From positions 1-55,576 of the IMG/VR virus record IMGVR_UViG_3300025601_000022: a DNA stretch of 55,576 nt. One strand, 5' to 3'. Position numbers and translations under genes: made by a program. The stretch is from a virus (taxonomy: Duplodnaviria > Caudoviricetes). The notes beneath the pieces were generated by a model, which worked only from the letters and a program-made list of their open reading frames with translations, did not search any database and was not told the DNA's origin. Below, piece after piece: positions 7,844 to 27,300 of the stretch. Within the stretch, counting starts at the first letter, position 1; the number at the start of each line of letters is the position of its first letter.

Positions 7844-7872
7844 TTGCACTTAGTGTCGAGTTCGCGTATTCT
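7844..7872 (+). promoter_or_regulatory. sigma-70/SigA promoter with the motif over the TSS
   Basis: TTGCAC-17-TATTCT immediately followed by CTTAGTAGCAC. Confidence 0.75.
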
Positions 7873-7914
7873 CTTAGTAGCACAAACAATCACCTACAAC
7901 GAAGGAGAGACATC

Positions 7915-8686: not shown

Positions 8687-8700
8687 GAAAGAGGGACATC

Positions 8701-8946: not shown

Positions 8947-8974
8947 TCATGCTACTAAGAGAAGGGGAAACGAA

Positions 8975-9178
8975 ATGACTTGCCTACAAGACCACACGGA
9001 CAAATGTAAGGGAACAGTGGAATACCGCGAATCTCTGTCAGGTACGGGTGTAGAGATTGCAAGATGCGAGAATCACTGGGGCGAAGCACTAGAGCGCGAC
9101 GAGCAGATCAGACTACGTTATCCACGCAACGCGCCAAGTGACTTTGATCCTTCGTACGCTGGTGAGTCATGGGAGTGA
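8975..9178 (+). CDS. small Cys/His actinophage protein
   Basis: CxGxVEYR..LSGTG...RCxxH and a PSDFDPSYAGExW ending; AAGGGG RBS. Confidence 0.75.
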   Translation: MTCLQDHTDKCKGTVEYRESLSGTGVEIARCENHWGEALERDEQIRLRYPRNAPSDFDPSYAGESWE

Positions 9179-9255
9179 ACGAAATTATTAAGTAGCAGGA
9201 GAAAGTTGCGACCAGAAAAAATGTTTTTTCTGAAGTGCCAAGTTATTCGCCAGAC

Positions 9256-9284
9256 TTGCATAATCACTAAAGTTAATGTATTCT
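9256..9284 (+). promoter_or_regulatory. sigma-70/SigA promoter with the motif over the TSS
   Basis: TTGCAT-17-TATTCT followed by CTTAGTAGCAC. Confidence 0.75.
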
Positions 9285-9338
9285 CTTAGTAGCACAAAAT
9301 GATCAGCGAAATACGCGGATCGAAAGGGGCGGGGAGAT

Positions 9339-9548
9339 ATGCCAAAGCAAGGGACAGTCACAGTAGTTTCAGTCCGACCATTCTGTGACTTTGGGTGCGG
9401 ATCAGAAGCAAAGATTGACGGGCGCACGACTATGGGTGCGTGGGCGAACATGTGCCTAGATCATTGGATCTCATACGGCTGCGGGAAATTGGGCGTGGGG
9501 CACGGTCAAAAGTTAGCACTTGCCCCTAAGAATGAAGGGGGCGAGTGA
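9339..9548 (+). CDS. small Zn-binding phage protein
   Basis: CDFGC..DGRT..GAWANMC..H..G.G.LG.G.GQ, a widespread phage motif. Confidence 0.8.
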   Translation: MPKQGTVTVVSVRPFCDFGCGSEAKIDGRTTMGAWANMCLDHWISYGCGKLGVGHGQKLALAPKNEGGE

Positions 9549-9549
9549 T

Positions 9550-9888
9550 ATGGCATTCGACATGAGTCTGGACTACGCCAATGGGACATGTTTACAGGGG
9601 CGCATAGACATAACTAGAGCGCGTATCGAAGAGGTGTTTGGCGCACCTCTGTACGACAGCACCGACAATGACGAAAAAGTCATGACAGAGTGGGGCATCA
9701 TGTTTGATGATGGAACATGCGCGACTATCTATGACTGGAAACGCTACGAAATGGGCGCGGTTGGATTCCATGAAGTTTATGACTGGCACATAGGTGGAAC
9801 TAGCCATGATGCTATGGATAAGGTTACAGCGGTGCTACTAAAGAGAGGGGGTGAGCGAGATGACTGGAGTTACATTAACAATTCATGA
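9550..9888 (+). CDS. conserved phage protein (EW..ATIYDWK..WHIGG)
   Basis: Recognisable motif; AAGGGGG RBS. Confidence 0.8.
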   Translation: MAFDMSLDYANGTCLQGRIDITRARIEEVFGAPLYDSTDNDEKVMTEWGIMFDDGTCATIYDWKRYEMGAVGFHEVYDWHIGGTSHDAMDKVTAVLLKRGGERDDWSYINNS

Positions 9889-10024
9889 TCAGGCTAAGGG
9901 GATTGCTCCGACACAAACTTTCACGTTTGAGTGCCATAGTCCCAAAAGACTGGCAGAGATTGTTCAGGGCACGTTCGACAACATGCCAGAGAGTGCGCGG
10001 ATTACGCAGATTTATGTGGACTAA
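9860..10024 (+). CDS. small hypothetical protein (54 aa)
   Basis: GAGGGGGTGA RBS; MTGVTLTIHDQAKG... Confidence 0.55.
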   Translation: MTGVTLTIHDQAKGIAPTQTFTFECHSPKRLAEIVQGTFDNMPESARITQIYVD

Positions 10025-10148
10025 TTAGATCTACTTAGTAGCACGACAAACACGCGGAACCTAATTTAGGTTTAGGCTTGCACATGTCAGTCACTTAGTG
10101 TATTGTTCTACTTATACGGAAAGCCCGTACAAAAGTGAAGGGGTCAAG

Positions 10149-10541
10149 ATGACTATCAAAAAGACAAACAAGGGCACGGTTAGCGTTTCGCACCGTGGCG
10201 CAGTAGTGGCAGACAGCGCACTTATCGCTGCTATCGCTCAAGTGAGTAACATGCGTGCTACTAAGAGAGAGTGCACTAAGGCTGAGGACGCTGCCAAGGT
10301 TGCAATCAAAGTTGCCACGGGAGATCGTGCGCGCCTTATCCTCAATGTCGAGGGAGACATCATCTGTGAAGTCAAAGAAGTTGCAACAACTAGCGTGAGC
10401 GTAGATGGGTTTCTCGAAGCACTAGAGGGACTCTACCCCGACATCTGGGCAACGCTCATGGACAGAGATCCCAAAGCAGTTGAGACCGCTAAGACCGCTG
10501 CTACCAAGCATGACACCTACCTTAAGGTGTTGCCTAAGTAA
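10149..10541 (+). CDS. hypothetical protein (130 aa), paralog of 6197-6589
   Basis: Promoter TTGCAC-17-TATTGT (10078-10106), AAGGGG RBS and terminator hairpin at 10551-10577. Confidence 0.85.
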   Translation: MTIKKTNKGTVSVSHRGAVVADSALIAAIAQVSNMRATKRECTKAEDAAKVAIKVATGDRARLILNVEGDIICEVKEVATTSVSVDGFLEALEGLYPDIWATLMDRDPKAVETAKTAATKHDTYLKVLPK

Positions 10542-10897
10542 TTAGGACTCGGAGAGGGGGACACGCGCCCCCTCTCCACACCATAACAGTGTGCTACTAA
10601 GAGAGAGACATCATGACAACAGACAAAGCAAAGACGATTACAGGGGTAGTCCTATCCTTGGCCATAGTTGGGACGCTGATAGGCATGGTTATGTCCATGC
10701 AAAGTCACGGACTACTTTGGTAGCACGCGAAAAATAGAGGGGAGTCGCGGAGATTCGTGGCTCCCGTTTAGTTTCGAGGAACCAGAAAAAATGTTTTTTC
10801 TGACATCCCCGCCGCGCGGTCAGACTTGACAGATAATTATTTTCATGATGTAATTTATCTATCACTCCAAGGGGGGTGATCAATGAAAGGACACAGC

Positions 10898-11272
10898 ATG
10901 AGGGCATTGACAGTGAACGCAGAGACATTAGAAACAACTCTGATTGACCTGCCACGCGAGGGCGGGCTGGCACAATTACAGCGCGAGGTCGGCGGATATA
11001 TCGAAGCGGTACGGTTAGAAGAGTTTGATTTCTATCTCAATGAAGAGGGCAAGATGATTGGCCTACCTCTCAATGAAGTGGGCACGCTGCTTTGGGAGAG
11101 CGTATATGGTCAGACCGACGTGATCATGGGTAATATCGTTGTCGTAGGTAAGCCTGATGATGAGGGCTACGAAACAGAGTTAAGTTTAGAGAGCGCGCAA
11201 GAGATTCAGAATATCGCCATTACGTTGCAAGTCACGCGGTTTGGTAATGCGCTTATGGCGCGCGGTAACTAA
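10898..11272 (+). CDS. DUF3846-domain protein
   Basis: LQxxVGGYIE...YLNEEGK..GLPLN...IxGN motif; TTGACA promoter at 10826. Confidence 0.8.
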   Translation: MRALTVNAETLETTLIDLPREGGLAQLQREVGGYIEAVRLEEFDFYLNEEGKMIGLPLNEVGTLLWESVYGQTDVIMGNIVVVGKPDDEGYETELSLESAQEIQNIAITLQVTRFGNALMARGN

Positions 11273-11441
11273 TCCTAGTCAAGGGGAGAGAGTGCATGTC
11301 TGACATTCTCTCCCCCTACACTTTAGTAGCACGATTTATATGCTACTAAGAAAGACACGCAAAGATTGCTCTCAGTTTGCATATGTCAGTGCATTGTGAT
11401 ATTGTTACACCACAAGCACAAACGAGCGAGAGGGGCACAAA

Positions 11442-11624
11442 ATGAGGTTCATGCCAGATAGCGCGATACTCGGAACCATAGGCCACGCAAAGCGTCGCTC
11501 AGCAAAGAGTAAGGCTCGCGCACGTCGCGCATCACGCAACCAACGCCCATTGACAGGCGTGGACATCATTGGCGGTATCGCCCTCATGTTCGGATTCATA
11601 TTGTTCGTAGCACTATTCGTTTAA
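11442..11624 (+). CDS. small basic membrane protein
   Basis: Arg-rich N-terminus with a C-terminal TM helix; promoter TTGCAT-17-TATTGT (11377-11405); AGGGG RBS. Confidence 0.65.
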   Translation: MRFMPDSAILGTIGHAKRRSAKSKARARRASRNQRPLTGVDIIGGIALMFGFILFVALFV

Positions 11625-11650
11625 TCGTGCTACTAAGAGAAGGGGAGATC

Positions 11651-11767
11651 ATGACAACACAGACACAGACACTTTGCAAGGATTGCAATATGTATCCTGC
11701 GATTCAGATTCAGCCGGAATACACAGAGCGTTGCCGGCACTGCCACAATAAATTGTGGAAGAAATAA
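11651..11767 (+). CDS. 38-aa Zn-finger peptide
   Basis: AAGGGGAG RBS; CKDC...CRHC. Confidence 0.55.
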   Translation: MTTQTQTLCKDCNMYPAIQIQPEYTERCRHCHNKLWKK

Positions 11768-12246
11768 TCATGCTACTAAGAGGGAGCACGATTGCGTTTA
11801 AGTGCGTAGAGTGTTTGCGGACGTGGACAGTATTTGATGACGCTCAAGAATGGGCGTATGGTCACGATTGCGAAGGGGGGTGATCGTGGAGATAGCCCAA
11901 GCGGTACTTGCGGGGATTCTAATGGGATTCGGCGCGGGGATCATATTCATTCGACGATGCTACTAAGAGAGAGAGACAGGCAAAATGTGTGTTTGACTTG
12001 CAATTGTCAGATGACTAATGTAGACTAAAGACATGCCAACACGGGCACAGAGATAGGGGACATCATGGCACCGGCTCAAGATTACGTGGAGACCTGCGGA
12101 TACTGCACCAATGAGTATCTTTACTCAAACCTACGCACCAATAATGAGGGGGACGCAATTTGCCCCCCCTGTCGGAAAGAGGGGGAGTGAGCGAGATGAT
12201 TTATGTTCCCATTATTCATGCTACTAAGAGAGAGAGTGACAAAGAG

Positions 12247-12519
12247 ATGACAACACCATTGATATTTATCACAGATCCTGGACATGGTTGGTTAGAGGTA
12301 GACTTAGCAGAATTCCCAGAAGCATTTGATTGTGGGACAGGATACGGATACATAGACGAAGCGCGCGGAAAGATATACCTCGAAGAGGATACAGAGCTTT
12401 GGGCATTCTTGAAGACTCACCCAGAGATTAACGACCGCATTACAGAGAAGGTGTGGGCAGACAGAGACGCACCATTGCGAAACCTGCCAAGGAACGAGGC
12501 CAGACTTGTGAGGGCGTAG
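12247..12519 (+). CDS. conserved phage protein (DPGHGWL...YLEED)
   Basis: Recognisable motif family. Confidence 0.8.
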   Translation: MTTPLIFITDPGHGWLEVDLAEFPEAFDCGTGYGYIDEARGKIYLEEDTELWAFLKTHPEINDRITEKVWADRDAPLRNLPRNEARLVRA

Positions 12520-12721
12520 GTATTAGTAGCGAGGGGGCGTGGCGAGAGTCGCGCCCCTAAGTTGCCGCCAGCTTAGAAAAAATGTTTTTTCTGAGAGCCA
12601 CGATACGCGGTCAGATTTGCAATTAAATATATTGTAAAGTAAAGTAAGGTAAAGTTAAATAGACAGCCACGCAGGTGCTCGCCACCTACGCTACTAAGAG
12701 ATAGAGGGAATACTAATAATA

Positions 12722-13297
12722 ATGAAAACTAAACGAAAGTCTTATCTACCAGTAGAGGTAGCAGACGCCTTTAATAAGATCTCAGGTGAACCACAATCTT
12801 TGCGAGACTCCTACATGCTACGTCTAGTAATGAATGGATGGACGCATAACTCTGTTGCAGTCGCTGCTGGAGATCTCTCACGTGAGCGAGTACGTCAGTG
12901 CGTGCATCCAAGTGTTTCTGACACTAATCCTTATTGGGACTATGTAACTACTCATGGCATTGACTCTCTCCCAGTCCCAGACTTACCAGATCGCATTGAA
13001 AAGCCTAGGGCTGCCCCAAGACCTATGCCTAGTGACGAAACTCTGGCACGACTAAGAGAACTAAAGCCACTCGCTGCGGAGGTACGATTTAATCACAGCC
13101 ACAACAGAGCAGAGGCTGAAGAGTATGTCGGGTTAATTTGGCACGCGCATACCGTAGAAGGCGTAAGTGTGTACCGTTTAGGAAAGTTGCTAGACGTGCT
13201 GCCTTGCGGTATCGAGAGTCGTCTAGTGCGTTATGGGTACAAGAAAACCAATGGTGGATCTGAAGCCTTTAGTCCGATTAAGTATCGGAAAGTCTAA
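12722..13297 (+). CDS. dual helix-turn-helix DNA-binding protein
   Basis: N-terminal HTH (GWTHNSVAVAAGDLSRERVRQ, sigma region-4-like), Pro-rich linker, second HTH (GVSVYRLGKLLDV). Promoter TTGCAA-17-TAAAGT at 12617-12645. Confidence 0.75.
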   Translation: MKTKRKSYLPVEVADAFNKISGEPQSLRDSYMLRLVMNGWTHNSVAVAAGDLSRERVRQCVHPSVSDTNPYWDYVTTHGIDSLPVPDLPDRIEKPRAAPRPMPSDETLARLRELKPLAAEVRFNHSHNRAEAEEYVGLIWHAHTVEGVSVYRLGKLLDVLPCGIESRLVRYGYKKTNGGSEAFSPIKYRKV

Positions 13298-13350
13298 GAT
13301 CATATTGTGTAGTGAAGTGGAGTGCTACTAAGTAGTAGCACGACACTCAC

Positions 13351-13423
13351 GCCCTCGTAGTTCAACGGACAGAATAACCGGCTTCTACCCGGTAGGTTGG
13401 GGGTTCGATTCCCTCCGAGGGCA
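13351..13423 (+). tRNA. tRNA-Arg (anticodon UCU, reads AGA)
   Basis: Acceptor stem GCCCTCG/CGAGGGC, D-arm GTTC/GAAT, anticodon arm ACCGG-CTTCTAC-CCGGT, T-loop TTCGATT. CCA is not encoded. Confidence 0.95.
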
Positions 13424-13426
13424 CAC

Positions 13427-13455
13427 TTGACAAACAAAGTAATGTCATATATTAT
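13427..13455 (+). promoter_or_regulatory. sigma-70/SigA promoter
   Basis: TTGACA-17-TATTAT. Confidence 0.8.
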
Positions 13456-13659
13456 TGTACTAACAACACAACAACTAAGGAGTGAGTCACATGATTTAAG
13501 TAAAGGAGTGAGGGTGGGGATACTCCAAAACCGCCAGCCAAAGGGACATAATCCCCTAGGCACAGAACACAGATAGGGGACAATAAGTTCACGGTAGTGG
13601 GAGGTGCAGAAGAACCCTCCCTCTACTGCTTGCTACTAACTACAAGAAGGGGTAAGACA

Positions 13660-13947
13660 ATGAGACTTCAAATGAACAGCGCAGAAGAGTTAGGACTCAT
13701 GCTCAGTCAAGATGAGGTAAGCGTACTTGCTACGGCATTAGGTGGGCTGCTAAGCACACTAAACCATGAGATCGAAGAGATCGGAGATACCGCAAAGGAA
13801 GATCAAAGTAATCTTATGATGATGCTCTCCATGAAAATGGATACGGAGATAATGTTTCTCAGTCTTTGGACGGCTCTAGGATTGGGCGAGGAAAAACTTG
13901 CCATGCTACTAAAGACAACACAGATAGGTGAGGGGGAGAGTGAGTGA
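13660..13947 (+). CDS. hypothetical protein
   Basis: AAGGGG RBS; helical, acidic sequence. Confidence 0.7.
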   Translation: MRLQMNSAEELGLMLSQDEVSVLATALGGLLSTLNHEIEEIGDTAKEDQSNLMMMLSMKMDTEIMFLSLWTALGLGEEKLAMLLKTTQIGEGESE

Positions 13948-13948
13948 A

Positions 13949-14116
13949 ATGAGAAAGTTTAATAAAGAAAATTATGGTGAAGACTTCTACGGTGTAATAA
14001 CCCACTGTGAGGTGAGGGTTAATTGGATCAACTGCCCTCTCCATAACAAAACAGGTTGCAAGGGAACGGTTTGTGCGATTTGTAGAGTAACCGACTTCGA
14101 TTGTGAAGGTGAGTGA
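13949..14116 (+). CDS. small Cys-rich protein
   Basis: Several Cys/His pairs; GGGGGAG upstream. Confidence 0.55.
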   Translation: MRKFNKENYGEDFYGVITHCEVRVNWINCPLHNKTGCKGTVCAICRVTDFDCEGE

Positions 14117-14117
14117 A

Positions 14118-14339
14118 ATGGTAGATCGCATAGAAAGTACGAAAACGGTCATGTTTGTAGGTGACTACTTTGCGCTGACAACTACGGTCATACTAGATGA
14201 GGGGCTACGTTACGAGGACGAAGAGGACGAGGACTTTGCCATAAGGATTGCCACCGTATTCCTATCAGAGCATTACGGGTTTGATGACATAGATGAAAAG
14301 TCCAATCAGATAGGTATCGTGGACGAGGACATGCCATAG
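14118..14339 (+). CDS. acidic hypothetical protein
   Basis: AAGGTGAG RBS; ORF track. Confidence 0.7.
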   Translation: MVDRIESTKTVMFVGDYFALTTTVILDEGLRYEDEEDEDFAIRIATVFLSEHYGFDDIDEKSNQIGIVDEDMP

Positions 14340-14357
14340 ATGCGGTACACTTTGACT

Positions 14358-14463
14358 TCTAAGTAGTAGCATGTAATCCCCTTTCCGTGCTCCTTAGATG
14401 TGGGAACCCCTTACCCACGAAGGCTGGCCTCTGGATACTTCCCAGAGGTCAGCCGTCTTTATT
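14358..14463 (+). ncRNA. three-hairpin small RNA with CCCCUU loops
   Basis: -10 TACACT at 14346. Hairpins: TCTAAG..AGCATG/CGTGCT..CTTAGA (loop TAATCCCCTTTC), GTGGG/CCCAC (loop AACCCCTTA), and a 13-bp GGCTGGCCTCTGG/CCAGAGGTCAGCC followed by a T-rich tail. Confidence 0.55.
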
Positions 14464-14525
14464 GTGGATGTGGAGCTGAGAAAAAACGTTTTTTCTATGA
14501 TACAGATTGGATGTACGCTATTCAC

Positions 14526-14786
14526 ATGTCTAACATCGAGATCGTTCAGAGTTCCTTTCACAGTAATGGTCACGCTGCCCCCTTCTACGCGGCAATAGTC
14601 GATGACCCAGACACAGGAGAAACAAAGATCGTCATTATGTTCGATGAGCCTGAATACACAGCCGTACTATCGTTGGATGCGCTACTTAATGACGAGGACA
14701 TTTCTCATGACAAGCATAATTCGAGAGGAGATATCTACGATTCTAAGTTGAGAGATGTTTTGTGGTATCCGGAGTCCGGGTCATAG
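14526..14786 (+). CDS. hypothetical protein, probably leaderless
   Basis: TACGCT -10 lies 6 nt before the ATG; FHxNG..AAPFY motif. Confidence 0.7.
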   Translation: MSNIEIVQSSFHSNGHAAPFYAAIVDDPDTGETKIVIMFDEPEYTAVLSLDALLNDEDISHDKHNSRGDIYDSKLRDVLWYPESGS

Positions 14787-14787
14787 G

Positions 14788-15345
14788 GTGACAACCATTA
14801 TTGGAGTTCAAGGATCTTCATGGGCTGTTATGGGCGCTGACTCACAGGTGAGTGAGGAGTCAAAAAAATTTCGATTGCCATCATCGTTTAGTAAGTTGAT
14901 TTCTAATGGTGAGTTTCTCATAGGGACAGCAGGAGATGTTCGCGCCGTCAATATTCTTACCCATACATTCGTGCCACCGATTGTAGGGAAGATCCCAGAT
15001 GAGGGGCTGGATAAGTTTATGGTATCCCGTTTTGTTCCTGCTCTCAAAGTTTGCTTTGATAATAATTTCTATGGCAAAGACAACGAGCATGACTCAGTAT
15101 TTATTGTTGCAGTTCGCGGGGTGTTATATGAAGTAGGGGGAGGCTATGAATGTATTCGAGATGATACGGGGTTATATTCGGTAGGTAGTGGATCCTCATA
15201 CGCATTAGGCGCGTTGCATGTCTTAAACAAGAAGCCCAGGACATTAAGCGGTGCTAAGGTTATGATCAAAGAGGCATTGCAAGCGGCAAGCAGATACGAT
15301 ACAGGTACATCGGATCCAGTTACTATTATCGTACAAAGATATTAG
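14788..15345 (+). CDS. proteasome beta/HslV-like Ntn-hydrolase protease
   Basis: GTG start gives (M)TTIIG with a catalytic N-terminal Thr; ADSQ, conserved K, GTAG and SVGSGSSYALGAL. Confidence 0.9.
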   Translation: MTTIIGVQGSSWAVMGADSQVSEESKKFRLPSSFSKLISNGEFLIGTAGDVRAVNILTHTFVPPIVGKIPDEGLDKFMVSRFVPALKVCFDNNFYGKDNEHDSVFIVAVRGVLYEVGGGYECIRDDTGLYSVGSGSSYALGALHVLNKKPRTLSGAKVMIKEALQAASRYDTGTSDPVTIIVQRY

Positions 15346-15357
15346 TAGCAGTCTCGG

Positions 15358-15480
15358 TTACTTGCCGTTGCGTTTGGTTGGCCTGAGGCAAACAATCTCC
15401 AAGAATATGCTCAGGATCGCTGCGCCTAGCGCAAAGGCTCCCAAACCTATTCCTACGGTTATTGCGTAGTCCCATGTCAT
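15358..15480 (-). CDS. 40-aa single-TM peptide
   Basis: MTWDYAITVGIGLGAFALGAAILSIFLEIVCLRPTKRNGK on the opposite strand. Confidence 0.4.
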   Translation of the reverse strand: MTWDYAITVGIGLGAFALGAAILSIFLEIVCLRPTKRNGK

Positions 15481-15589
15481 GTGACCTATCATGACAGGAG
15501 TATATGACACTTTAAGCGTGGTGCGCTAGGTATTATCGTTTGGATAGTGTAGGATAGTGCTAACACAACGACAACACATAGGGGACACC

Positions 15590-15742
15590 ATGAAAGATGT
15601 ACGATTGACACTCAGAGGCAAGATTGTATTGGCTATGGCATTGCTAGGGCTAGTGAGTGCTGCTATCTACGCCGTTACACCAGAGGAATGCAGGTCGGGC
15701 GAGAGTCGTCAAAGTGCCTACTGTGCGGAATATCTACGCTAG
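15590..15742 (+). CDS. small membrane/secreted protein
   Basis: ATAGGGGAC RBS; RLTxRG followed by a TM segment and two Cys. Confidence 0.65.
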   Translation: MKDVRLTLRGKIVLAMALLGLVSAAIYAVTPEECRSGESRQSAYCAEYLR

Positions 15743-15751
15743 GATGAGATC

Positions 15752-15904
15752 ATGATGAAGCGTATAGTTTGGGCTGCCGTAGTTTCGGCATTGCTCGCCG
15801 TTGTATCTGTCGTCCTTGCGGTGCTAGGACATGAGTCAGAGTCTATTGCATTTGGTATGGCTGCCGTAGTGTCTGCAATTCTCTCCAATAGGGAACGCGT
15901 ATAA
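15752..15904 (+). CDS. small two-TM membrane protein
   Basis: MMKRIVWAAVVSALLAVVSVV...; hydrophobic. Confidence 0.5.
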   Translation: MMKRIVWAAVVSALLAVVSVVLAVLGHESESIAFGMAAVVSAILSNRERV

Positions 15905-15920
15905 CGCTTATACTAATCTC

Positions 15921-16331
15921 ATGACTGATGCCCCGACACCTAATGAAAGCCCTAAGCCTGCCCCTACGCCCTTAAATGTAGTGCCAGCTAGTAAGAGTGA
16001 TGGTGAGAGTGTTGTCGCTCCTAAGCCCGTTCCTGCCCCGCCTAAGCCCGTTGCGGTAGTGTCCTCGATTGGATCCGTGGATGTTGTAGTGGGATCACTT
16101 GTATATCAAGCACGCGCCCTTCGAAGTATTAGCGTGGCAGTCGTGCAAGATAGATTGACAGAGTTAGGCTACGGGGATGCGCGTGGAGATCTCCGTGGAT
16201 GGCTATCTGATGGGACAGTAAAGGCTCTGTCAGCGTTTCAGAGTGCATCAGGACTGTTGGTAACAGGTATAGCCGATATGGACACCGTTAAGGCTCTGCT
16301 CAAAGATACAGGGGCAACCGTAACCGATTAG
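15921..16331 (+). CDS. peptidoglycan-binding domain protein (PG_binding_1-like), leaderless
   Basis: VQxRLxxLGY...T.KALSAFQ..SGL.VTGIAD..T; TATACT 6 nt before the ATG; Pro-rich N-terminus. Confidence 0.8.
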   Translation: MTDAPTPNESPKPAPTPLNVVPASKSDGESVVAPKPVPAPPKPVAVVSSIGSVDVVVGSLVYQARALRSISVAVVQDRLTELGYGDARGDLRGWLSDGTVKALSAFQSASGLLVTGIADMDTVKALLKDTGATVTD

Positions 16332-16352
16332 TATTAGTAGCACTATAAGTGA

Positions 16353-16382
16353 AAGCCCCCCATGTTTGAGATGAGGGGCTTT
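16353..16382. terminator. bidirectional terminator at the convergence point
   Basis: AAAGCCCC...GGGGCTTT hairpin between convergent genes. Confidence 0.75.
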
Positions 16383-16395
16383 CCTAGTTGCTGAT

Positions 16396-16518
16396 TTATT
16401 CGACCAGATCCGCGTAGCAGATGAAGCACACTAGGTGCTTGCCAAAGTATCGGCTACTTGCTGACCCACATAGGGTGCATGTCTCGGTCTCGGTCTCGGT
16501 CTTGATCTCGGTTGTCAT
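16396..16518 (-). CDS. 40-aa Zn-finger peptide (cassette 5)
   Basis: CTLC...CFIC; own promoter TTGACA-17-TACACT (16587-16559); AAGGGG RBS. Confidence 0.65.
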   Translation of the reverse strand: MTTEIKTETETETCTLCGSASSRYFGKHLVCFICYADLVE

Positions 16519-16643
16519 GTCTTGCCCCTTGTCTTGCACCCCCTTGGTGCATGGCTTGAGTGTAGCGTAGCCCTAATCTGATGTCAAGTTAGGGGATACA
16601 TGAGTGAGCCCCCCACCTTGCGGTGAGGGGCTTCACTTGATGT

Positions 16644-16880
16644 CTAGGAGGTCTCACACTCCCACTCCAACGTCAAGCCCTCCATTAGTTGCATACCCTC
16701 TGAGACCCCGTTACACCAGCGGATAGCGGGGTAACTCTTGTCAAAGTGCTTCCACATGAATGGCTGACCCCAGTTGTTCCCGTACCCCTTACGCTCACCG
16801 TTAGCATCTATCTCCCATGCGTATCGTCCACTATTCGCAACGGCCTCTTCCCATGTAACGGGCTTAAGATTTTGACTCAT
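16644..16880 (-). CDS. hypothetical protein (78 aa, cassette 4)
   Basis: Promoter TTGCAT-17-TACTGT (16952-16924); ATAGGGGA RBS. Confidence 0.7.
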   Translation of the reverse strand: MSQNLKPVTWEEAVANSGRYAWEIDANGERKGYGNNWGQPFMWKHFDKSYPAIRWCNGVSEGMQLMEGLTLEWECETS

Positions 16881-16984
16881 TTGATATTCCCCTATCTGTG
16901 CGCCCCGAGTTGGGCATAGCCTGACAGTACAGCAAAGTGCAGGGTAATGCAATACCTACGCGGAATTAGTTTCGGCGTGTCTAC

Positions 16985-17091
16985 TCGCGCTCACGAGCTC
17001 ACGCCTACGCGCTCACGCGCTCACGCCTACGCGCTCACGCGCTCACGCGCTCACGCTCACGCCTACGCGCCTACGCGCCTACGGCTCACGC
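16985..17091. repeat. tandem repeat of CGCTCACG / CGCCTACG units
   Basis: About 13 imperfect 6-8 bp units, intergenic. Confidence 0.9.
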
Positions 17092-17135
17092 AAAAGCCCC
17101 CCACCCGTGAGGGTGAGGGGCGCTAGGCAAGAGGA

Positions 17136-17630
17136 CTACACGCGCCCCCCACATACGGGGCCAATACCGGCAGCCACGCTAACGGGATTAGTTAGCATGG
17201 CAGCGCATACGCAACAAAAACCGAACTCCACGCCCCACGCCTTAGCCTCGGCCAATGTCATACGATCCTCGGCGGTGAGTGTGCGAATAGCACCGGCAGC
17301 GTAAACAAATTGAGCGTTACCTTCAGCCAACATATCGAGACGCTTCGCGTATAGGTTGCCAGACTCGCGTGACTTGACCACACGGAATATGTCCCCGTTC
17401 ACGCGGTACATACCCACTTCGAGAGGCGCGGTCGGCGCGACAACGATCTTAGGCGCTTGCAATAACAGATTAATGCTACGCGAGGCCAGATCCTTATCTA
17501 GTGTTCCAGACTCAATGCGCGACAGTAGTGCTACGCGAATTTCGGCCAACTCGGTGCGTGTGTTGAGTAGGTGCGTAAGGTATGAAACTTGACGCTCTGT
17601 GGCGGGTGAGATTGTCGCGGTCATGGTCAT
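17136..17630 (-). CDS. DUF6011-domain protein (cassette 3)
   Basis: C-terminal CCVC..LTNPxS..GIGPVC; N-terminal ATxRQ..YL; promoter TTGACA-17-AATACT (17700-17672). Confidence 0.8.
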   Translation of the reverse strand: MTMTATISPATERQVSYLTHLLNTRTELAEIRVALLSRIESGTLDKDLASRSINLLLQAPKIVVAPTAPLEVGMYRVNGDIFRVVKSRESGNLYAKRLDMLAEGNAQFVYAAGAIRTLTAEDRMTLAEAKAWGVEFGFCCVCAAMLTNPVSVAAGIGPVCGGRV

Positions 17631-17794
17631 GATGTCCCCTTTTTTTGTGGAGCCCCTTGCTCCATGTCTTAAGTATTACATAGTACTGAAAGTATGTCAA
17701 GTCCAAACGGATAGTTATTTATTTCAGCGTGTCGCGCGCTTGCGGATATGAAAGAGCCCCCCACCTTGCGGTAGGGGGCTCTCAAAGTCTTGAC

Positions 17795-17989
17795 CTAAAC
17801 CGCGTGGCGCGTATAGGTTCGACGTTCGGGAGTGTCCCAGACGATATAGTCATGATCAAGGTGTCCACAATTGGAGCACCACGCTAGGCCACCCTTGATG
17901 ACACCGATTGAAACTATGCGCTCGAATGACTCTGCGCGTTCGGCAACATCACAGTGGAGCAATACGGTTGCTCTGATTTTCTTTGACAT
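17795..17989 (-). CDS. small Cys/His protein (cassette 2)
   Basis: Promoter TTGACA-17-AATACT (18065-18037); GAGGGGA RBS. Confidence 0.7.
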   Translation of the reverse strand: MSKKIRATVLLHCDVAERAESFERIVSIGVIKGGLAWCSNCGHLDHDYIVWDTPERRTYTRHAV

Positions 17990-18115
17990 GGGATCCCCTC
18001 TCAGGAGATGTATGGAGCCCCTTGCTCCATGTCTTAAGTATTACATAGTGCGGTTATATTGTCAAGTGGAAGAGCCCCCCACCTTGCGGTAGGGGGCTCT
18101 GTTGGAGATTAGGGG

Positions 18116-18367
18116 TTATCTCCCCTCATCTAAGAATGTAATGTGCGGGTATGTGAGTGCGGTAGTTGGAGTTGGATCGCTCGTTACTTGGAGATATACC
18201 GCGCTGACCTTGGCTTGATCACATGTTGCGAGTAGCGCGGTGAGTTTGCGGTCTCCGTAGGTTGCGTTGAACTCACCAGACCAGGTGAACCCATCTGTGA
18301 AAGTAATGACTACACCAGAGATGCGGTCTCCTAATAAAGCCTTGCGATCTGCTAATACGGTATTCAT
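18116..18367 (-). CDS. hypothetical protein (83 aa, cassette 1)
   Basis: Promoter TTGACA-17-TATTCT (18436-18408); ATAGGGGA RBS. Confidence 0.7.
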   Translation of the reverse strand: MNTVLADRKALLGDRISGVVITFTDGFTWSGEFNATYGDRKLTALLATCDQAKVSAVYLQVTSDPTPTTALTYPHITFLDEGR

Positions 18368-18417
18368 GATATCCCCTATCTTTTGCCGCCCCTTGCGACA
18401 TGACATAAGAATATACT

Positions 18418-18667
18418 ATGCGGATGCGGTTGTCAATTCTAGATGAATTAAAGCATTTATGTATACAAGAATATATTATTTCATGCGGATGCGGTTAATG
18501 TTTGGGGGGCTAGTCCTGCCCAATTGCCTGCCATGAGATGCGGATGCGGTTAATGGATTGGCTTAGCCATAGGTCATAGGCCATAGGCACTAGGCCATAA
18601 GAGGGATGCGGTCAATGTAGGCGCGTTGCCTTAGGTAACTACATGTCAGGGTCATGCGGATGCGGTG
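18418..18667. repeat. ATGCGGATGCGGT direct repeats spaced about 55-65 bp apart
   Basis: Copies near 18418, 18483, 18538, 18604 (partial) and 18654. Confidence 0.85.
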
Positions 18668-18694
18668 AGTCGGTTATGGACGGCTAGGGGGCTG

Positions 18695-19160
18695 CCCCCC
18701 ACCCCCTAGTAGTAGGTAGTAGGTAGTAGGTAGTAGGCCAGATGGGTCAGATGTAGGTATGTATGTATGTATGTATGTATGTATGTATGTATGTATGTAT
18801 GTCAGATGTATGTATGTTTGATGTATATCTGTCAGATGTATGTATGTTTGATGTATATACATAATTTGATGTCTGTCAGTTTGTTTGTCAATTTGTCAAT
18901 GTCTATCTGTCAATGTCTATCTGTCAATGTCTGTCAGTTTGTTTGTCAGTTTGTTTGTCAGTTTGTTTGATGTCTGTCAATGTCTGTCAGTTTGTTTGAT
19001 GTCTGTCAGTTTGATGTCTGTCAGTTTGATGTCTCTCATTTGATTGTCAGATGATTGTCAGATGATTGTCTGTCAGTTTGTTTGTCTGTCAGTTTGTTTG
19101 ATGTCTGTCAATCTGTTAGTGCTCATTTGTTTGCCTGCCAATTTGCCTGTCAATTTGTGA
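18695..19160. repeat. low-complexity array: C-run, (AGTAGGT)n, (ATGT)n and about 20 co-oriented TGTCA(A/G) units
   Basis: Directly visible; non-coding; strongly T/G-biased on the + strand. Confidence 0.95.
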
Positions 19161-19531
19161 TCACATAATTTAACGGTCATCGGTTGATCGGTTGTCTCAG
19201 AGATATTTCATGGTCGGATAGGCATGTTGTCTCAGACGCCAAAGATTTCGGATCCGTCCGGATTTCGGACGAAAGTTTAGGAAACGTTTTTGGAGAGTGC
19301 CCAATGTACCCGGAGCCAACTCAGCAACCAAATTCAAATAAAGTTAATGTTCATACTTTCTCCTCTTCGTCCAATAAAGTAGCCACCCCCACCCCCCTCT
19401 AAAAAACGCTTCGTAATTTTGGAAAAATTTTTAAAAAACTTAAACGTTTAAGCTTCACACTTTCAACAATCGTACAAGATCTGTCCGACTTTAGTGCTGT
19501 ACGTTAATTAAAAATACGGTAGAGTGCTTTT

Positions 19532-20050
19532 ATGCGTTTCGACTCCCATTTGCCTCAAGATGAGGTCCGTTTTCTTGAGGCTCTTCCCATCCCCGAGATG
19601 CACTCTCGTCTTGCGGCATTGCATCATAACGGTTGGTCTTTTGCAGCCCTTGGGCGTTCACTAAACCCTGAGAAAGCAAAGACTACAGTCCATTACTGGG
19701 TTCGTAATGCTCCTACCCCCACCCCTCAGCGCAGGGCCATTCCTCAAGCGCCGAATCATTCGCTCTTTCATGCAGTTCCTACCCTACGCACTCCTCAAGC
19801 GCGCTCGATTGCACCTAAAGTACCGCCAGATCTGCGCCCTCACCTGCGAGAACTCGCACAATTATCCCGTAGATACCGAGCGCGAACCCCAGGTAACTCG
19901 GTTACCGCTCAGGCGAACCAAGAACTCACCCGTTTAGCTGTTCAGTTGCACTCTTACGGGGTACCTACCTCCGATATTGCAGCGGCAGCGGGTATTACCT
20001 ATCGAGCGGTAGCACGGCGCATCTCACTTCACGCTAAAAAGGACAAATAA
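19532..20050 (+). CDS. dual helix-turn-helix protein, paralog-like to 12722-13297, leaderless
   Basis: NGWSFAALGRSL HTH, Pro linker, LRELAQL helix, GVPTSDIAAAAGITYRAVARRI HTH; TAGAGT 6 nt before the ATG. Confidence 0.75.
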   Translation: MRFDSHLPQDEVRFLEALPIPEMHSRLAALHHNGWSFAALGRSLNPEKAKTTVHYWVRNAPTPTPQRRAIPQAPNHSLFHAVPTLRTPQARSIAPKVPPDLRPHLRELAQLSRRYRARTPGNSVTAQANQELTRLAVQLHSYGVPTSDIAAAAGITYRAVARRISLHAKKDK

Positions 20051-23313: not shown

Positions 23314-24357
23314 ATGACAACACAATCGTCAAAGAACTGGGTACAAGTAAAGGTAGTGCAAGAATATTTGCCTTCCGAGACTTTGGTGTCTCCCGATACG
23401 ATTGTTGCTGCTGCAAGCGAGCCTGCTCCTAAAGAAGATCAGATCAAGGGCTCAGACACAAATAAAAAAGACTCTGCTAGTGGCGAAGGAAAGATTTCTT
23501 TTGGAGCTCGTACCGAGACTGCTATCAAAAACAAAGTAGAAGAACACAATAAAAAGGCTCCTAAGGGACGTAAAGCTACTCTTTCTATGCTTAAAGCGGT
23601 TTATCGCAGGGGGGCTGGAGCATTCTCTACCAGTCACCGACCAGGAATGTCCAGAGACCAGTGGGCTATGGCGCGCGTTAACGCCTATTTAAAGCTTCTT
23701 AAGTCTGGTAAGCCATCAAACTCTGCGTACACAACTGATAACGATCTTTTACCTGCATCACACCCCAAGAGCAGCAAGAAGTCCAATTCAGCGCTTACCG
23801 CCAGCGGATTGGTACCTGAAGAGCGTGATTTAGCAGATGCAATTCTTTCTGTAGTAGAAAAGCACGGAAAGTTTAACGAAGACGCTACAGGAGTCTGGGC
23901 CGGATATACTCCTGCCGATAAAAATACAGATGCAGGCATCGGGGTTATTTGCGCCAACTGCGTGTTTTATCAAGGTGGAGCAGATTGCGCAATCATTAGT
24001 CTCCCTGTCGAGCCCAATGGGAAGTGCCGACTAGCGATTCTACCTGACGGAGTCGTAACTGCAAAAAAGAATACTCAGGACATAGAGCTAGAACTAGTTT
24101 CTTTTACAGCCGAAAATGAACTTGCTCTTAACGATTTAAAAGAAAATACATTTTCTACTGCTCAAGGTGCAATTACGTATCTTACAGAACTTTCCGGTCT
24201 CGGATACGAAGCCGAGTATGCAATAAAAGCTTCCTGGATGCGAGCAGTAAAAGAAAGTCAAGATCCATATTTACGTGCACGAGAGCTGGCAATTACTACG
24301 TATAATAGTCAAGATGCAGATTTGCTCCCTAAGAAAACAGAAAGTGCGGAACTGTGA
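23314..24357 (+). CDS. multidomain head-associated protein with a HiPIP-like Cys cluster
   Basis: LKAVYRRGAGAFSTSHRPG..QWAMARVNA domain; CANCxFY..C..VxxNGxC at 23950-24027. Confidence 0.75.
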   Translation: MTTQSSKNWVQVKVVQEYLPSETLVSPDTIVAAASEPAPKEDQIKGSDTNKKDSASGEGKISFGARTETAIKNKVEEHNKKAPKGRKATLSMLKAVYRRGAGAFSTSHRPGMSRDQWAMARVNAYLKLLKSGKPSNSAYTTDNDLLPASHPKSSKKSNSALTASGLVPEERDLADAILSVVEKHGKFNEDATGVWAGYTPADKNTDAGIGVICANCVFYQGGADCAIISLPVEPNGKCRLAILPDGVVTAKKNTQDIELELVSFTAENELALNDLKENTFSTAQGAITYLTELSGLGYEAEYAIKASWMRAVKESQDPYLRARELAITTYNSQDADLLPKKTESAEL

Positions 24358-27300
24358 TTAACAACCTCACTAACAAGCAGCTAGCAAAGGTTACAGCCTC
24401 TGCTATCACTCTTGTTGCTAGTGCCAACAAAGAAACTCAAATATATCGGCGCGTTAGCCCGAGATCTGCAGTAGAGATTCTTGCTCGGTCACTAGAGAAA
24501 ACTGCCAAACTTCCGTTCTCTATCCGTGAGTATCTCGCCATACGCGATGTATCTGACTTTGTGCTTGTCTCTCAGAAGAACAAAACAAACCTTGCAAAAC
24601 GTCGTAACACAGATCTTCTTCCAATATGCCACCCGTCATCTAGCAAGAAGCACGCAATGACGGCTAGCGCTTTGCGTATTGAGCGTGGACGTTGGATCGC
24701 AGCTGACCCTAGAATTACTGACACAGAAGCTCAAGCGATGATTGCATCTGCATTTAGCTCTGCCCCGTTCTCTCCTGAAGAGTCTTACTACATTACGCGC
24801 CTTACCGCCCTCCCACAGGGTTCCGTCCCTCTTACGGCAATTATCGCTGCCTTTGGTGATGGAAACTCTACGGCGGCTCGTTCTGCTCGAGCTCGTATGC
24901 AGCGTCGTGACCGCAAAGGTCGCTTTGCGTGGATGGGTGGGGGCATGTCCACTATTGTTCGTCGTAGAGACGGATCTACTCGTAAACTTAGCGGTAGAAC
25001 AATTGCTCAGGGTGTTGGAGCGGATGACACTTTCGATCTAGAAACTCCTGACGGTCGATTGCTCAGAGTTCCTGCCGGAAGCTCTGAAGCAAGTAAGGCT
25101 TACCTGCGGGGAGAAGACTCTCCTGACGGATTCTCGGTTGCTGAAGTTGGTGCGATTGATAGAAAAGATGCAGTAGATGAAGATCAAATTCTTGAGGTAG
25201 AGTTCCCTAATCTTTTCCGTAAGGACGGTTCTTACACAGGAGCTGGTACTAAATACACCGACGATGCCTATGACGTTATTAAATTAGATCCAAATAATGA
25301 TGACGACTTTGAAGCACTCCCAGACGAACTTGTTCAAAGAAAGCCTGACGGCTCCTTCCCTATTGATTTAGATAAGCCTGTATTTATTCTAAATAGAGAT
25401 ACTGGTCAGCGTGGCGGTACCGATCTAGGCCAGTTCCAAAACTGGGCAGACACTCAGGGCATGATTAATGTAGATGAAATTGTTCGAGACAAAGAAGAAG
25501 GCCGCGAGTCTGACGCTATTGCTGTTCTCGATCAAGAAACATACAACAGACTGTACGACACCGTAGGTGACAGGGATCCTTATGAGGTCCTCCAAGAAAT
25601 TCAAAAAGAGTCTTCGGGTCAAGAAGACAGGGCCCCCCTTAACGATAAGAGTCAAGCTTTTAATTTTGTTGACCCAACGGGTGCAAATTTTGTAGATGAT
25701 GATTTTACATACGAGCCTAAAGGTCGTACTGATCAAGACTCTACCGACTATACCGATGATCCTTCAGTACTGGCTAACTCTTTTTCTGAAGAAGAATTAA
25801 CAAGCGCACTAAAAGAAGCCGTTACTCCTGCAGAGCCCACAGAAAATTCAGAAGACCTAGACGCCCTTGACTTTGGGCCTCCAGGAGATGGAGATCTCTC
25901 CTTTAATGACGGGGATGAAAAAGTTCCCGCTCAAGCGTTGTATGACGCGCTAAAAGAACAAGGCACTGACGCGCAAAATAAACTTGCAGAGATTTATGAC
26001 GAACTACCTGAATCAAGCACTACGAATGTTTCTGACCTAGAAAAAGCTCGCGCTGAAGGACCAAAAGCTACCCTAGTAGAAGAAGTTGCTCGTACTCCTA
26101 AGGCTGTGCTCCCCACACCAGAAGAAGTTCCTGAAGAAGAAGCACCCTTGGCTTCAAAATATGAAAATCTTCCTCCACTCTTTGATGGACTTTCTGATGA
26201 TGAAAAAGCAGAAATTCTTGACGGCAAAGACTACAGTAAGTATCTTCCAAAGAATCCAGACAAAGATGTTCCAGAAGGATTCCAGCCAGTATTTCCAGAA
26301 CCTTTTGAAAATGTTGATGAAAACCCAGACTTTGACCCTATAAATCTTGCTAACACGAATGACGCGGTCGATCTTAAAGAGGCTCTTGCTGAAGGACTTA
26401 GTCCTGACGCAGAACGGCCAGGTTATGGGACTGTAGGACGTACTGATGAAGACGGTGAAGAATCTTTTACTACTGCTCCTCTCGCTGCTATTCGAGATGC
26501 TCTTCAAATGCAGGGCGAAGATGCAGATAAGCTTATTGATGATGTCTACAAAAAAGATGAGGACACAAGCTCTTCTGATGCTGCAGATGCCCTAGACGAT
26601 CTACTTGGAGATCTTGATGACGCAGACGCAGACACTCAAGACCTGTCAACTGAACCAACCACTAGGACAGTAACTGCTCCTAACGGGAAAGACTACACAG
26701 TCAGCACTCGTAAAAATGAAGATGGAACTGTTGACCTAGTTCTTTCAGACTCTGAAGGCAGAGAATTTGTTGAAAGCTCGGGAGATGAAGAAGAGCTACA
26801 AGAACTAAACGGTCAAGCAGAGCAGTACGCGCAGTCCATTGAAGACGGCGACGAAGCCGGGCAAGCATTAACTGAGATAATTGACGATGAAGATATCTCA
26901 GACGTTCCAGAAGATGTCACTCCAGAAGATCAAGTAGATGATGTTGTTGATGATGTAGTAGAGCCAGAAAAAACTGAAAGGGAGAAGGCTCTTGAAAATC
27001 CTCCTGGAGATATTCCTGCCGTAGGATCTCCAACAGGTGAACCGTCAGTTCAAGGAACCATAAAACTTCGTGCTGGTAAGTTGAGAGTTGGAGACTGGGT
27101 ACTTGGTGCGGATAATAAATGGCATAAAATTGTTTCTAGTAAAAAATTTCCTTCTTTTAGGGATAAAGAAATAGCACGGGAAAATAGAGTACCGGCAAAA
27201 AAATCTGTAACTCTGCTTACATTAGACGATGGAACAACAATTTCTAGCGGGTTGGGCGACACTAGAACGGAGGAATTTTATGACGTATCTACCCCTCCTC

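Follow-up and report, generated by a model that had tools for sequence, protein, structure and literature searches.

AAGGG-loop leader hairpins on portable one-gene cassettes of an uncultured actinophage, with a candidate C-loop RNA as possible partner

The window considered here is the whole IMG/VR viral record IMGVR_UViG_3300025601_000022, with 55,576 bases and an estimated completeness of 38%. It is a fragment of an uncultured actinophage. On its minus strand, five leftward one-gene cassettes lie in series at 16354-18436 (2.1 kb), and the mRNAs predicted for four of them start with a small hairpin carrying an AAGGG loop. These hairpins are well supported as sense-strand RNA at the predicted 5' end of host-type transcripts, borne on a portable regulatory module, and they may also be the docking site of a phage RNA with CCCCUU loops. 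A leftward block separates the rightward genes of 1-16331 from those starting again at 19532; the array is internal, flanked by a lysis-like gene and the portal block. Among the virion proteins, the portal, capsid, adaptor, major tail and tape measure are of the type found in actinophage siphoviruses. For the capsid protein, identity reaches 76% with its counterpart in Actinomycetia phage DSL-LC01, a metagenome-assembled phage with a predicted Actinomycetia host (PMC10611076), and about 50-56% with the capsids of large Microbacterium, Arthrobacter and Gordonia phages. Salt-lake metagenomes contain the stretch, a habitat known only for the window's own runs. A blastn search with 16300-18500 against 50,697 phage records gave no match, and no prophage relatives of the capsid gene were found in reference genomes.

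All cassettes follow the same order: a promoter with a 17-bp spacer, a short leader, an AGGGG-containing ribosome site, one small gene and a G+C-rich hairpin (Table 1). The -35 box is TTGACA in four of the five promoters and TTGCAT in one. When 11500-20000 was scanned, promoters A, B, C and E were the sole 10/12 matches on the minus strand; promoter D (TTGCAT) was not listed by this independent scan, which returned 15 sites in total against 11.7 +/- 3.0 in shuffles. From the end of a terminator hairpin to the next -35 box, the distance is 6-30 nt at three junctions (6 nt from A to B). One of the five hairpins is accepted as a terminator because the other U tails are short: 17096-17121 alone passed the T-run rule of the terminator scan. 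No PHROG or Pfam match passed the cut-off for four of the five cassette proteins, and the fifth matched DUF6011 alone. A first-pass annotation made from the letters alone had described these leftward cassettes, with their 17-bp-spacer promoters, AGGGG sites and small genes, and all its coordinates check out. It had also remarked that the cassettes are free of TAGTAGCA, a word repeated in the window; indeed, there is none inside 16396-18436, and the nearest copy is at 16335.

Leaders A, B, C and E carry a hairpin of 6-7 bp at the predicted transcript 5' end, with the apex C-AAGGG-G. All four are part of the minimum-energy fold, with modest z-scores (-4.2, -1.0, -1.6 and -2.0), and both their positions and the 37-bp exact repeat at 17648-17684 and 18013-18049 were as the first-pass annotation had given them. 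No further AAGGG-loop hairpin was found elsewhere in the window on either strand (stem of at least 6 bp, G·U allowed). Four copies compare with a mean of 0.27 (maximum 2) in 200 dinucleotide shuffles, a count that is not significant alone because the best loop 5-mer of any kind reaches about 3.4 copies (maximum 5) in the shuffles; besides, two of the four (B and C) are one duplication. What lies beyond chance is the position: all four hairpins stand 6-7 nt past the -10 box of the neighbouring promoters.

The apex C-AAGGG-G occurs on 12 different stems in eight viral contigs and the cultured Arthrobacter phage Mimi. In the 13 aligned viral-contig copies and in Mimi, the hairpin starts 4-8 nt past a -10-like hexamer, so that a few 5' nucleotides are unpaired at most; promoter geometry predicts 0-3 unpaired nt before the stem. 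The start codon follows 12-26 nt past the stem, one ambiguous start (G003_x) excepted, and the genes behind the hairpins are mutually unrelated. On the 13 rows, 91.2% of the cells are paired against 54.6 +/- 4.4% in shuffles, and none of 500 shuffles reaches 91.2%. Six of the seven stem pairs have changed on both sides (33 cells; 13 rows), and slid registers of the alignment leave 24-46% paired. The covariation was also computed on an earlier 8-row version of the alignment. Rows G000_A, G002_x and G006 contain U·G or G·U pairs, which exist only when the sense strand is read and so fit sense-strand RNA only. The AAGGG hairpin is well supported as a real, conserved RNA structure of the sense strand.

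The closest comparison is offered by a sister contig (G001/L005), most of whose proteins are 84-100% identical to those of the window. Its cassette E has UGCCAC-AAGGG-GUGGCA against UGCACC-AAGGG-GGUGCA in the window, with two pairs changed on both sides. A different gene stands behind the unchanged promoter and hairpin of C, a diverged gene A stands behind UGCC-AACAAG-GGCA (A'), and cassette D is absent. Further versions of the hairpin are found in contigs G002, G003, G004, G006, G008 and G009. The contigs G002-G004 share 20-40% identity with the window in a few proteins only; G006, G008 and G009 are grouped with them by a common upstream box, not by protein comparison. In Mimi, the 13-row covariance model picks out the leader TTGACG-17-TAGAGT, CAGCUC-AAGGG-GAGCUG, AGGAGG, ATG. 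Both of its occurrences, at 13907 and 186567, fall in the repeated ends of the genome, where the leader is part of an array of some 40 small genes.

Covariance model R1 gave a convincing match in one of five phage records, Mimi, and none in DSL-LC01, A3Wally, Pumpernickel and GodonK; in DSL-LC01, where it matched nowhere in the whole record, the syntenic stretch has no leftward genes annotated. Homologues of gene C at 53-58% identity (L003, L004) also lie in one-gene cassettes, with GAAAGGA ribosome sites, and these cassettes lack the AAGGG hairpin. Neither was one found within 1.2 kb of sequence in L144, which has 63% identity on the neighbouring helix-turn-helix gene. Of the matches listed in a pattern scan with AAGNCATGNNNNCAAGGGG, 117 were examined; a stem of at least 5 bp was present in four, of which three represent a single homologous hairpin (8-bp stem). 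A scan with GGGAACCCCTTACCC gave, besides the sister contig, unrelated coding regions alone; among the matches listed for CCTGTGGATAACTAG, which were filtered by box count, most were due to chance.

Table 1. Positions of the cassette features, the candidate C-loop RNA and other elements in the window.
Feature	Position	Strand	Remarks
Leader hairpin A	18384-18400	-	UGUCGC-AAGGG-GCGGCA; one U·G pair, possible only on the sense strand
Leader hairpin B	18012-18030	-	AUGGAGC-AAGGG-GCUCCAU; within the 37-bp repeat 18013-18049
Leader hairpin C	17648-17664	-	UGGAGC-AAGGG-GCUCCA; 37-bp repeat 17648-17684
Leader hairpin D	16901-16916	-	UGCCC-AACUCG-GGGCG; other class, without AAGGG loop
Leader hairpin E	16535-16551	-	UGCACC-AAGGG-GGUGCA
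Candidate C-loop RNA	14362-14462	+	in 158-nt spacer between gene ending at 14339 and next gene
Promoter A	18436-18408	-	TTGACA-17-TATTCT; one ACCGCATCCGCAT repeat in spacer
Promoter B	18065-18037	-	TTGACA-17-AATACT, TG upstream
Promoter C	17700-17672	-	TTGACA-17-AATACT, TG upstream
Promoter D	16952-16924	-	TTGCAT-17-TACTGT, weaker
Promoter E	16587-16559	-	TTGACA-17-TACACT
Ribosome site A	18371-18379	-	AUAGGGGAU
Ribosome site B	17993-18001	-	AGAGGGGAU, within second small hairpin
Ribosome site C	within 17136-17642 (site and gene C)	-	AAAGGGGAC
Ribosome site D	within 16607-16895 (site, gene D, terminator-like hairpin)	-	AUAGGGGAA
Ribosome site E	within 16354-16531 (site, gene E, terminator-like hairpin)	-	CAAGGGGCA
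Gene A	18116-18367	-	83 aa, without family match
Gene B	17795-17989	-	64 aa
Gene C	17136-17630	-	164 aa, DUF6011 at C-terminus, phrog_636
Gene D	16644-16880	-	78 aa
Gene E	16396-16518	-	40 aa, CxxC...CxxC
Terminator-like hairpin A	18072-18099	-	12-bp stem, GCAA loop, short U tail
Terminator-like hairpin B	17754-17781	-	28-mer identical to that of hairpin A
Terminator C	17096-17121	-	T-run
Terminator-like hairpin D	16607-16632	-	G+C-rich
Terminator-like hairpin E	16354-16380	-	G+C-rich
Tandem 7-8 bp repeats between cassettes C and D	16986-17091		length differs among population contigs
Possible operator array	18418-18666	-	four ACCGCATCCGCAT copies and one partial, upstream of and inside promoter A
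Rightward cassette of similar build	11998-12190	+	TTGCAA-17-TAGACT, then GAUAGGGGAC, 41-codon open reading frame from 12065
Leader hairpin of rightward cassette	12034-12047	+	UGCC-AACACG-GGCA
tRNA-Arg(TCT) gene	13351-13424	+
HslV-family peptidase gene	14755-15345	+

The cassettes are also shuffled within the phage population, as seen from joints read in the contigs of four DNA runs. One joint fuses promoter C to hairpin E (16554->17668), another joins terminator to terminator (16632->17786), a third promoter to promoter (17702->18072), and a fourth places leader D ahead of gene C (17634->16888); the population contigs hold 73 further single-base differences. The breaks of the sister contig and of the population fall exactly at promoter, leader and terminator boundaries. 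In this respect, the cassettes behave like mobile regulatory modules, and the promoter-leader and the terminator would be the recombination joint.

A joint at a promoter/hairpin boundary (16554->17668) and the 37-bp exact repeat common to B and C may also suggest that the conserved element acts as DNA, be it an operator, an N4-type hairpin promoter or a recombination hot spot maintained by gene conversion. Such an explanation is very unlikely. On the template strand, the G·U pairs would turn into A·C mismatches, and gene conversion cannot give the same apex on unrelated stems. A dimeric operator was rejected because the stems differ among the cassettes of a single phage and would be unreadable by one dimeric repressor. 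N4 promoters consist of a template-strand hairpin with a 3-nt purine loop and are used by a virion or phage single-subunit RNA polymerase. Here, the template-strand loop is 5 nt long and pyrimidine-rich, the wobbles fit the non-template strand only, and no RNA polymerase family or domain was found in the window, in which 38% of the genome is present and the PF00940 control matched nowhere; the N4-type promoter was rejected on these grounds. In a further variant, a conserved 5' AUG would start a leaderless mini-ORF (open reading frame). Of the 13 aligned copies, 11 start with AUG (AUA in G008, UUG in G009_a), the exceptions being the two G003/G006 forms and G009_b. Three leaders with an AAC loop, those of window D, window 12033 and G001 A', share this start. 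Nevertheless, the mini-ORFs have 9, 12, 32 and 42 codons in differing frames, and 17 in G001, while the hairpins of G003_y and G006 are without AUG; the variant was rejected because lengths and frames are unconserved. A lambda nut boxB was rejected as well. The boxB loop is a GNRA-like pentaloop with G first and A last, used together with boxA and an N-type protein, whereas AAGGG starts with A and ends with G. No repeat resembling boxA was noticed, and an N-like protein was not searched for.

The loop is under a constraint of its own. In the orthologous zinc-ribbon genes of G003 and G008, the apex is kept on completely different stems. When 62 hairpins were tabulated by an upstream CCTGTGGATAA box, and not by their loop, AAGGG was the commonest loop (5/62), every other occurring at most three times. 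In distinct hairpins of leader context, AAGGG is found in 12 of 15 and AAGGA in none. The first-pass annotation had proposed a constant loop on differing stems: the stems do covary and the loop does prevail, but it is not constant, for one-base variants exist and homologous cassettes may carry other hairpins. The constraint on the apex extends beyond that on the stems and calls for a sequence-specific partner.

This partner might be an RNA-binding protein, either of the phage, for example one of the small zinc-ribbon cassette proteins, or of the host, which would set cassette stability or translation. Hairpins recognised by proteins usually show such a pattern, with an apex and closing pair that stay the same while the stems vary; several AAGGG cassettes encode mini-proteins with CxxC...CxxC (window gene E, G003_y and G008), and CAAGGG resembles the GGA-in-loop sites of CsrA-type regulators. 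A protein partner is nonetheless improbable. PHROG and Pfam searches did not find an RNA-binding domain in the five cassette proteins, CsrA is to our knowledge not known in Actinobacteria, the genes behind the hairpin are mutually unrelated, and complementary C-rich loops at another site in the phage would be left unaccounted for.

These loops belong to the candidate C-loop RNA at 14362-14462. It contains hairpin 1 with the loop UAAUCCCCUUUC, hairpin 2 with the loop AACCCCUUA and then a 13-bp terminator with a T-run, so that CCCCUU is displayed in both loops before a strong terminator. The first-pass annotation had spoken of CCCUU loops complementary to the leader loop, and they were located at 14362-14421 on the plus strand. 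The 111 nt at 14362-14472 fold at -42.2 kcal/mol (z -4.4), the terminator is the best in 11500-20000, and one U·G pair of hairpin 1 would read as a C·A mismatch on the opposite strand. No Rfam family matches the stretch; the 6C family gave no match at E<=10 in 14200-14600 and none at E<=1. The reverse complement is collinear with a cassette leader, with an AAGGGG hairpin, a spacer, AAAGGGGA and CATG. The stretch is either a trans-acting antisense copy of a leader or an inverted fossil. The terminator, the C-rich words in the loops and the strand-specific U·G pair of the modelled fold argue for a functional plus-strand RNA.

The CCCCUU loops face AAGGGG at the apex and (A)AGGGGA at the ribosome sites. 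In duplex energy, leader B exceeds all 15,521 background windows, and leaders C, D, A and E rank 24, 47, 107 and 217; in structure-aware cofolding, the leaders rank 12 to 92 of 2,934. When the 90 candidate starts that have a ribosome site are ranked, the cassettes take places 1, 5, 7, 8 and 14.

Similar loops recur in the related contigs. CCCCUU-loop hairpins located at most 30 nt upstream of a terminator-like site were counted, and they were found in G000, G001, G002, G003, G004, G006 (two), G007 and G008, and neither in G005 nor in G009 (a 13% fragment). In 1.31 Mb of unrelated viral loci, one such hairpin was found at the relaxed threshold and none at the strict one; a second background set of 0.99 Mb had four, two of which (L217, L223) lie in contigs of the phage group under study. 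CCCCTT is one of 4 hexamers, out of 4096, present in such loops of all four lineage representatives, and the loop is kept on three different stems at the end of one conserved gene (G003, G002/G004 and G006).

The first-pass annotation had also considered that the leaders decoy a host 6C RNA; in general terms, they might titrate, or be targeted by, a host small RNA (sRNA) of 6C type with C-rich loops. In mycobacteria, the C-rich loops of 6C bind G-rich loops or single strands in the 5' untranslated regions (UTRs) of many mRNAs, including an AGGGGGG ribosome site, without a chaperone (PMC6486639). Relatives of the window phage infect Actinobacteria, and leaders and ribosome sites are both G-rich. 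Even so, a host 6C partner has very little probability. The AA of the apex demands UU in the partner, and the phage loops read CCCCUU in 8/8 listed, while plain C runs need none. Five short-lived leaders would make a weak sponge, no prophage relative was found in reference genomes, and the 6C covariance model (RF01066) has no match at the gathering score in the window.

The C-loop RNA fits best as the partner because AAGGGG and CCCCUU are both conserved in loops and because AAGGA, the best match to the ribosomal anti-Shine-Dalgarno (anti-SD) core, is absent from the 15 leader-context hairpins; the binding of 6C to G-rich loops and an AGGGGGG ribosome site offers a precedent (PMC6486639). The preferred explanation, to which we give a probability of roughly 40%, is that of a 5'-terminal stabiliser hairpin doubling as the docking site of the phage C-loop RNA. 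Host RNA polymerase would make monocistronic transcripts from the sigma-70/sigma-A-type promoters, with the hairpin at their extreme 5' end, and the portable promoter-leader module and terminator hairpins would frame the small accessory genes and act as recombination joint. By analogy with known 5' stem-loops and SD-like leaders, the hairpins likely shield the mRNA 5' end, and the stem would block decay enzymes that depend on this end. The conserved apex C-AAGGG-G would be a sequence-specific docking site, most likely for the RNA 14362-14462 at the 3' end of a rightward operon, one CCCCUU loop of which would match the leader apex (AAGGGG) and the other the ribosome site and start codon (GAAAGGGGAUUACAUG-like). 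Once rightward transcription has started, a loop-loop contact would be followed by pairing across the ribosome site. As a result, translation of the cassettes would be shut off and their mRNAs exposed to decay.

Several observations weigh against this explanation. The presence of C-AAGGG-G in 13/13 aligned rows and in Mimi is an inflated and partly circular figure because most rows were found via an AAGGG search, and the co-occurrence tests were designed after the pattern had been seen. The C-loop is found without an AAGGG leader in G007 (contig 63% complete), AAGGG leaders without a C-loop in the 13% fragment G009, and Mimi has an AAGGG leader with an ambiguous C-loop only, which is unexposed in the minimum-energy fold. 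The computed affinity comes mainly from the AGGGG ribosome sites and not from the apex because leaders D and 12033, which lack the AAGGG loop, have an equally good predicted binding to the C-loop RNA; two rightward genes (starts 6953 and 9339) also score high. The stretch 14362-14425 could be an inverted fossil of a leader, and it is without covariation of its own because it is identical in G001, the sole close relative. No convincing sigma-70 promoter was found before the C-loop RNA, and no RNA runs covering 13500-19500 were found, so that 5' ends, timing and the sRNA are deduced from DNA. A 5-nt loop is, moreover, small for a kissing complex. One-base loop variants occur in leader context, namely AAGGC (G002/G004, G008) and AAAGG (G009), with no compensating C-loop change alongside AAGGC, and related arrays have many 5' hairpins with unrelated loops (AACACC, ACCAA, AACCG, ACCGG). 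The kissing-loop control proposed in the first-pass annotation is left with collinear complementary CCCCUU loops and their co-occurrence elsewhere in its favour, and with a predicted energy that stems mostly from ribosome sites against it; its interpretation as a whole is partly supported.

The box-defined loop tally, the one-base variants and the unrelated loops indicate that the general feature is a 5' hairpin, of which AAGGG forms a recurrent, strongly constrained subclass. The hairpin could be a 5' stabiliser and nothing else, with the purine-rich apex kept for 30S binding, as in STAB-SD leaders, or as a favourable loop, and the C-loop RNA would be irrelevant or a fossil. It is at the predicted 5' end in all cases, nearly all cassettes of related arrays have some 5' hairpin with diverse loops, AAGGC included, and hairpins may be swapped between homologous cassettes (G003 at 6294 vs G002; G001 A' vs window A; joint 17634->16888). 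The Mimi leader has no clear partner, and AAGGGG can pair with the anti-SD core, which we take to be CCUCC although that of the host may differ, only by using one G·U. We give this explanation a somewhat lower probability than docking, and a higher one than a protein partner. The apex should drift like the stems, yet 12 distinct stems and orthologous genes on unrelated stems keep AAGGG. Selection for 30S binding predicts AAGGA or AGGAG, with 0/15 in leader context, and the recurrent CCCCUU loops before terminators would be unexplained.

The docking hypothesis can be extended to a two-part RNA switch common to several actinophage lineages, made of an apex-marked cassette regulon and a 6C-like 'anti-SD mimic' RNA. 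The C-loop RNA would be freed from the 3' end of a later operon and, therefore, early accessory genes would be silenced by RNA alone, while the repeated signals would double as joints shuffling the genes. This extension is tentative, and we would rather bet against it. The first-pass annotation had seen immediate-early host-takeover genes in the cassettes. Promoter type and the location of the Mimi array are the only hints at early timing, which is conjectural, and at a host-takeover role, which is a guess.

Several repeated words and other features accompany the array. In 417-16342, the plus strand has 21 copies of the word TAGTAGCA and 25 of its reverse complement TGCTACTA, 23 of the latter within 3713-13904. 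TGCTACTAAGAGA is often directly upstream of a ribosome site and TAGTAGCA often after terminators; the tRNA gene has a copy 10 nt ahead of it, and the C-loop RNA has one at its start. This pattern looks like a phage-specific transcription or processing signal. An 18-bp palindrome, AGAAAAAAYGTTTTTTCT, is found five times in rightward intergenic spacers (7796, 9214, 10784, 12575 and 14479, plus strand), one copy being directly past the C-loop RNA terminator. Upstream of cassette A, ACCGCATCCGCAT has a chance expectation of 0.002 copies as a 13-mer, and one copy fills the spacer of promoter A; the copies may form an operator array for the first cassette. The start of gene E (16481-16512, minus strand) has a GAGACC hexamer repeat that encodes Thr-Glu repeats, with one extra unit in the sister contig (42 vs 40 codons). 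Short tandem repeats with periods of 4, 7, 12, 14, 15, 29 and 30 are dense at 18709-19096, a block that separates the leftward cassettes from the rightward structural genes; the relative L144 has GGTGCCAG repeats there. Farther downstream, a 3770-codon ORF (24354-35666, plus strand) has a UvrD-type helicase, a ParB C-terminal domain, a peptidase-like stretch and DUF7178, and looks like a polyvalent, possibly virion-borne protein.

Related arrays have repeated words of their own. In G003 (L130), at 4700-11000, each one-gene cassette is preceded by CCTGTGGATAA, which contains a DnaA-box-like word, and by a long inverted repeat TTGTTTGTGTTGGGG...CCCCAACACAAAC around an A+T-rich core. In L003 and L004, a CTCAAAAAACATAC-like word stands ahead of each cassette promoter. 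In Mimi (L312), the stretch 1614-1870 has an intergenic TTGACA-17-AATAAT promoter followed by about 220 nt without annotated gene; 1740-1880 folds at z -4.8, and the stretch ends in a terminator-like hairpin. Owing to the strong fold and this end, it is a candidate non-coding RNA of the terminal repeat.

Little is understood of how actinophages time their gene expression, and the majority of their small genes are orphans. The leader motif, for which Rfam gave no match in the window at the gathering score, marks one class of phage transcripts by sequence. Because a cultured Arthrobacter phage also carries it, besides uncultured phages of salt-lake and other metagenomes, it is open to bench tests. 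Should the C-loop RNA prove to be the partner, phages would encode their own version of the actinobacterial 6C mechanism, directed at an entire regulon. A hairpin that does no more than stabilise would still give Actinobacteria a compact, portable expression module. The individual kinds of element are known, namely promoter-terminator cassettes, 5' stabilisers and sRNAs with C-rich loops. As far as our searches tell, there is no earlier description of the conserved leader apex, of its spread over actinophage lineages or of the pairing with a phage-encoded C-loop RNA that it may undergo.

The arrays in the terminal repeats of SPO1 and T5 consist of many small host-takeover genes, each with its own strong host-type promoter. 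The window array shares the promoter for each small gene, and the Mimi array with its AAGGG leader lies in repeated genome ends. In contrast, the window array is internal and not in terminal repeats, and early timing and host takeover are conjectural here. Phages P1/P7 (c4) and P4 (CI) have trans-acting antisense RNAs that act on one operon for immunity. As in the pairing proposed here, the loops of a small phage RNA pair with two short mRNA sites including the ribosome site, which shuts off a gene set; they differ in that the proposed target is a family of monocistronic leaders instead of one operon.

The C-loop RNA resembles 6C (RF01066) in being a small RNA with C-rich hairpin loops before a terminator, whose targets are G-rich loops and 5' UTR ribosome sites reached by chaperone-free loop pairing (PMC6486639); the phage pairing is a prediction. 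The phage loops are CCCCUU, while 6C has longer C runs, and the phage RNA is collinear with a whole leader, phage-encoded and in 3' UTR position. No literature linking 6C-type RNAs with actinophages was found in a limited literature search. The leaders can also be compared with 5'-terminal stem-loops and STAB-SD leaders, such as those of ompA, papA, ermC and cryIIIA (reviewed in PMC3997798). With these they would share a hairpin at the very 5' end, where promoter geometry places it, and an SD-like purine run that is presumably unused for initiation. Unlike these, the phage apex is conserved among phages at 20-40% protein identity and is never the optimal anti-SD complement, and stabilisation by it would be by analogy.

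The closest likeness in organisation is with the promoter-early stem-loop (PeSL) elements, the mobile regulatory cassettes of T4-type phages (PMC2839356, PMC4122927). PeSLs are strong sigma-70-like promoters adjoining terminator stem-loops, repeated between small accessory genes of unknown function, with insertions, deletions and replacements among close relatives and breakpoints in the repeats, as in the window. The population joints show PeSL-like modular shuffling beyond the T4 group. The hosts of PeSLs are T4-like myoviruses, whereas the window phage is a siphovirus-type actinophage. To promoter and terminator, its unit adds a third conserved element, a 5' leader hairpin of fixed apex, which these sources do not describe for PeSLs.

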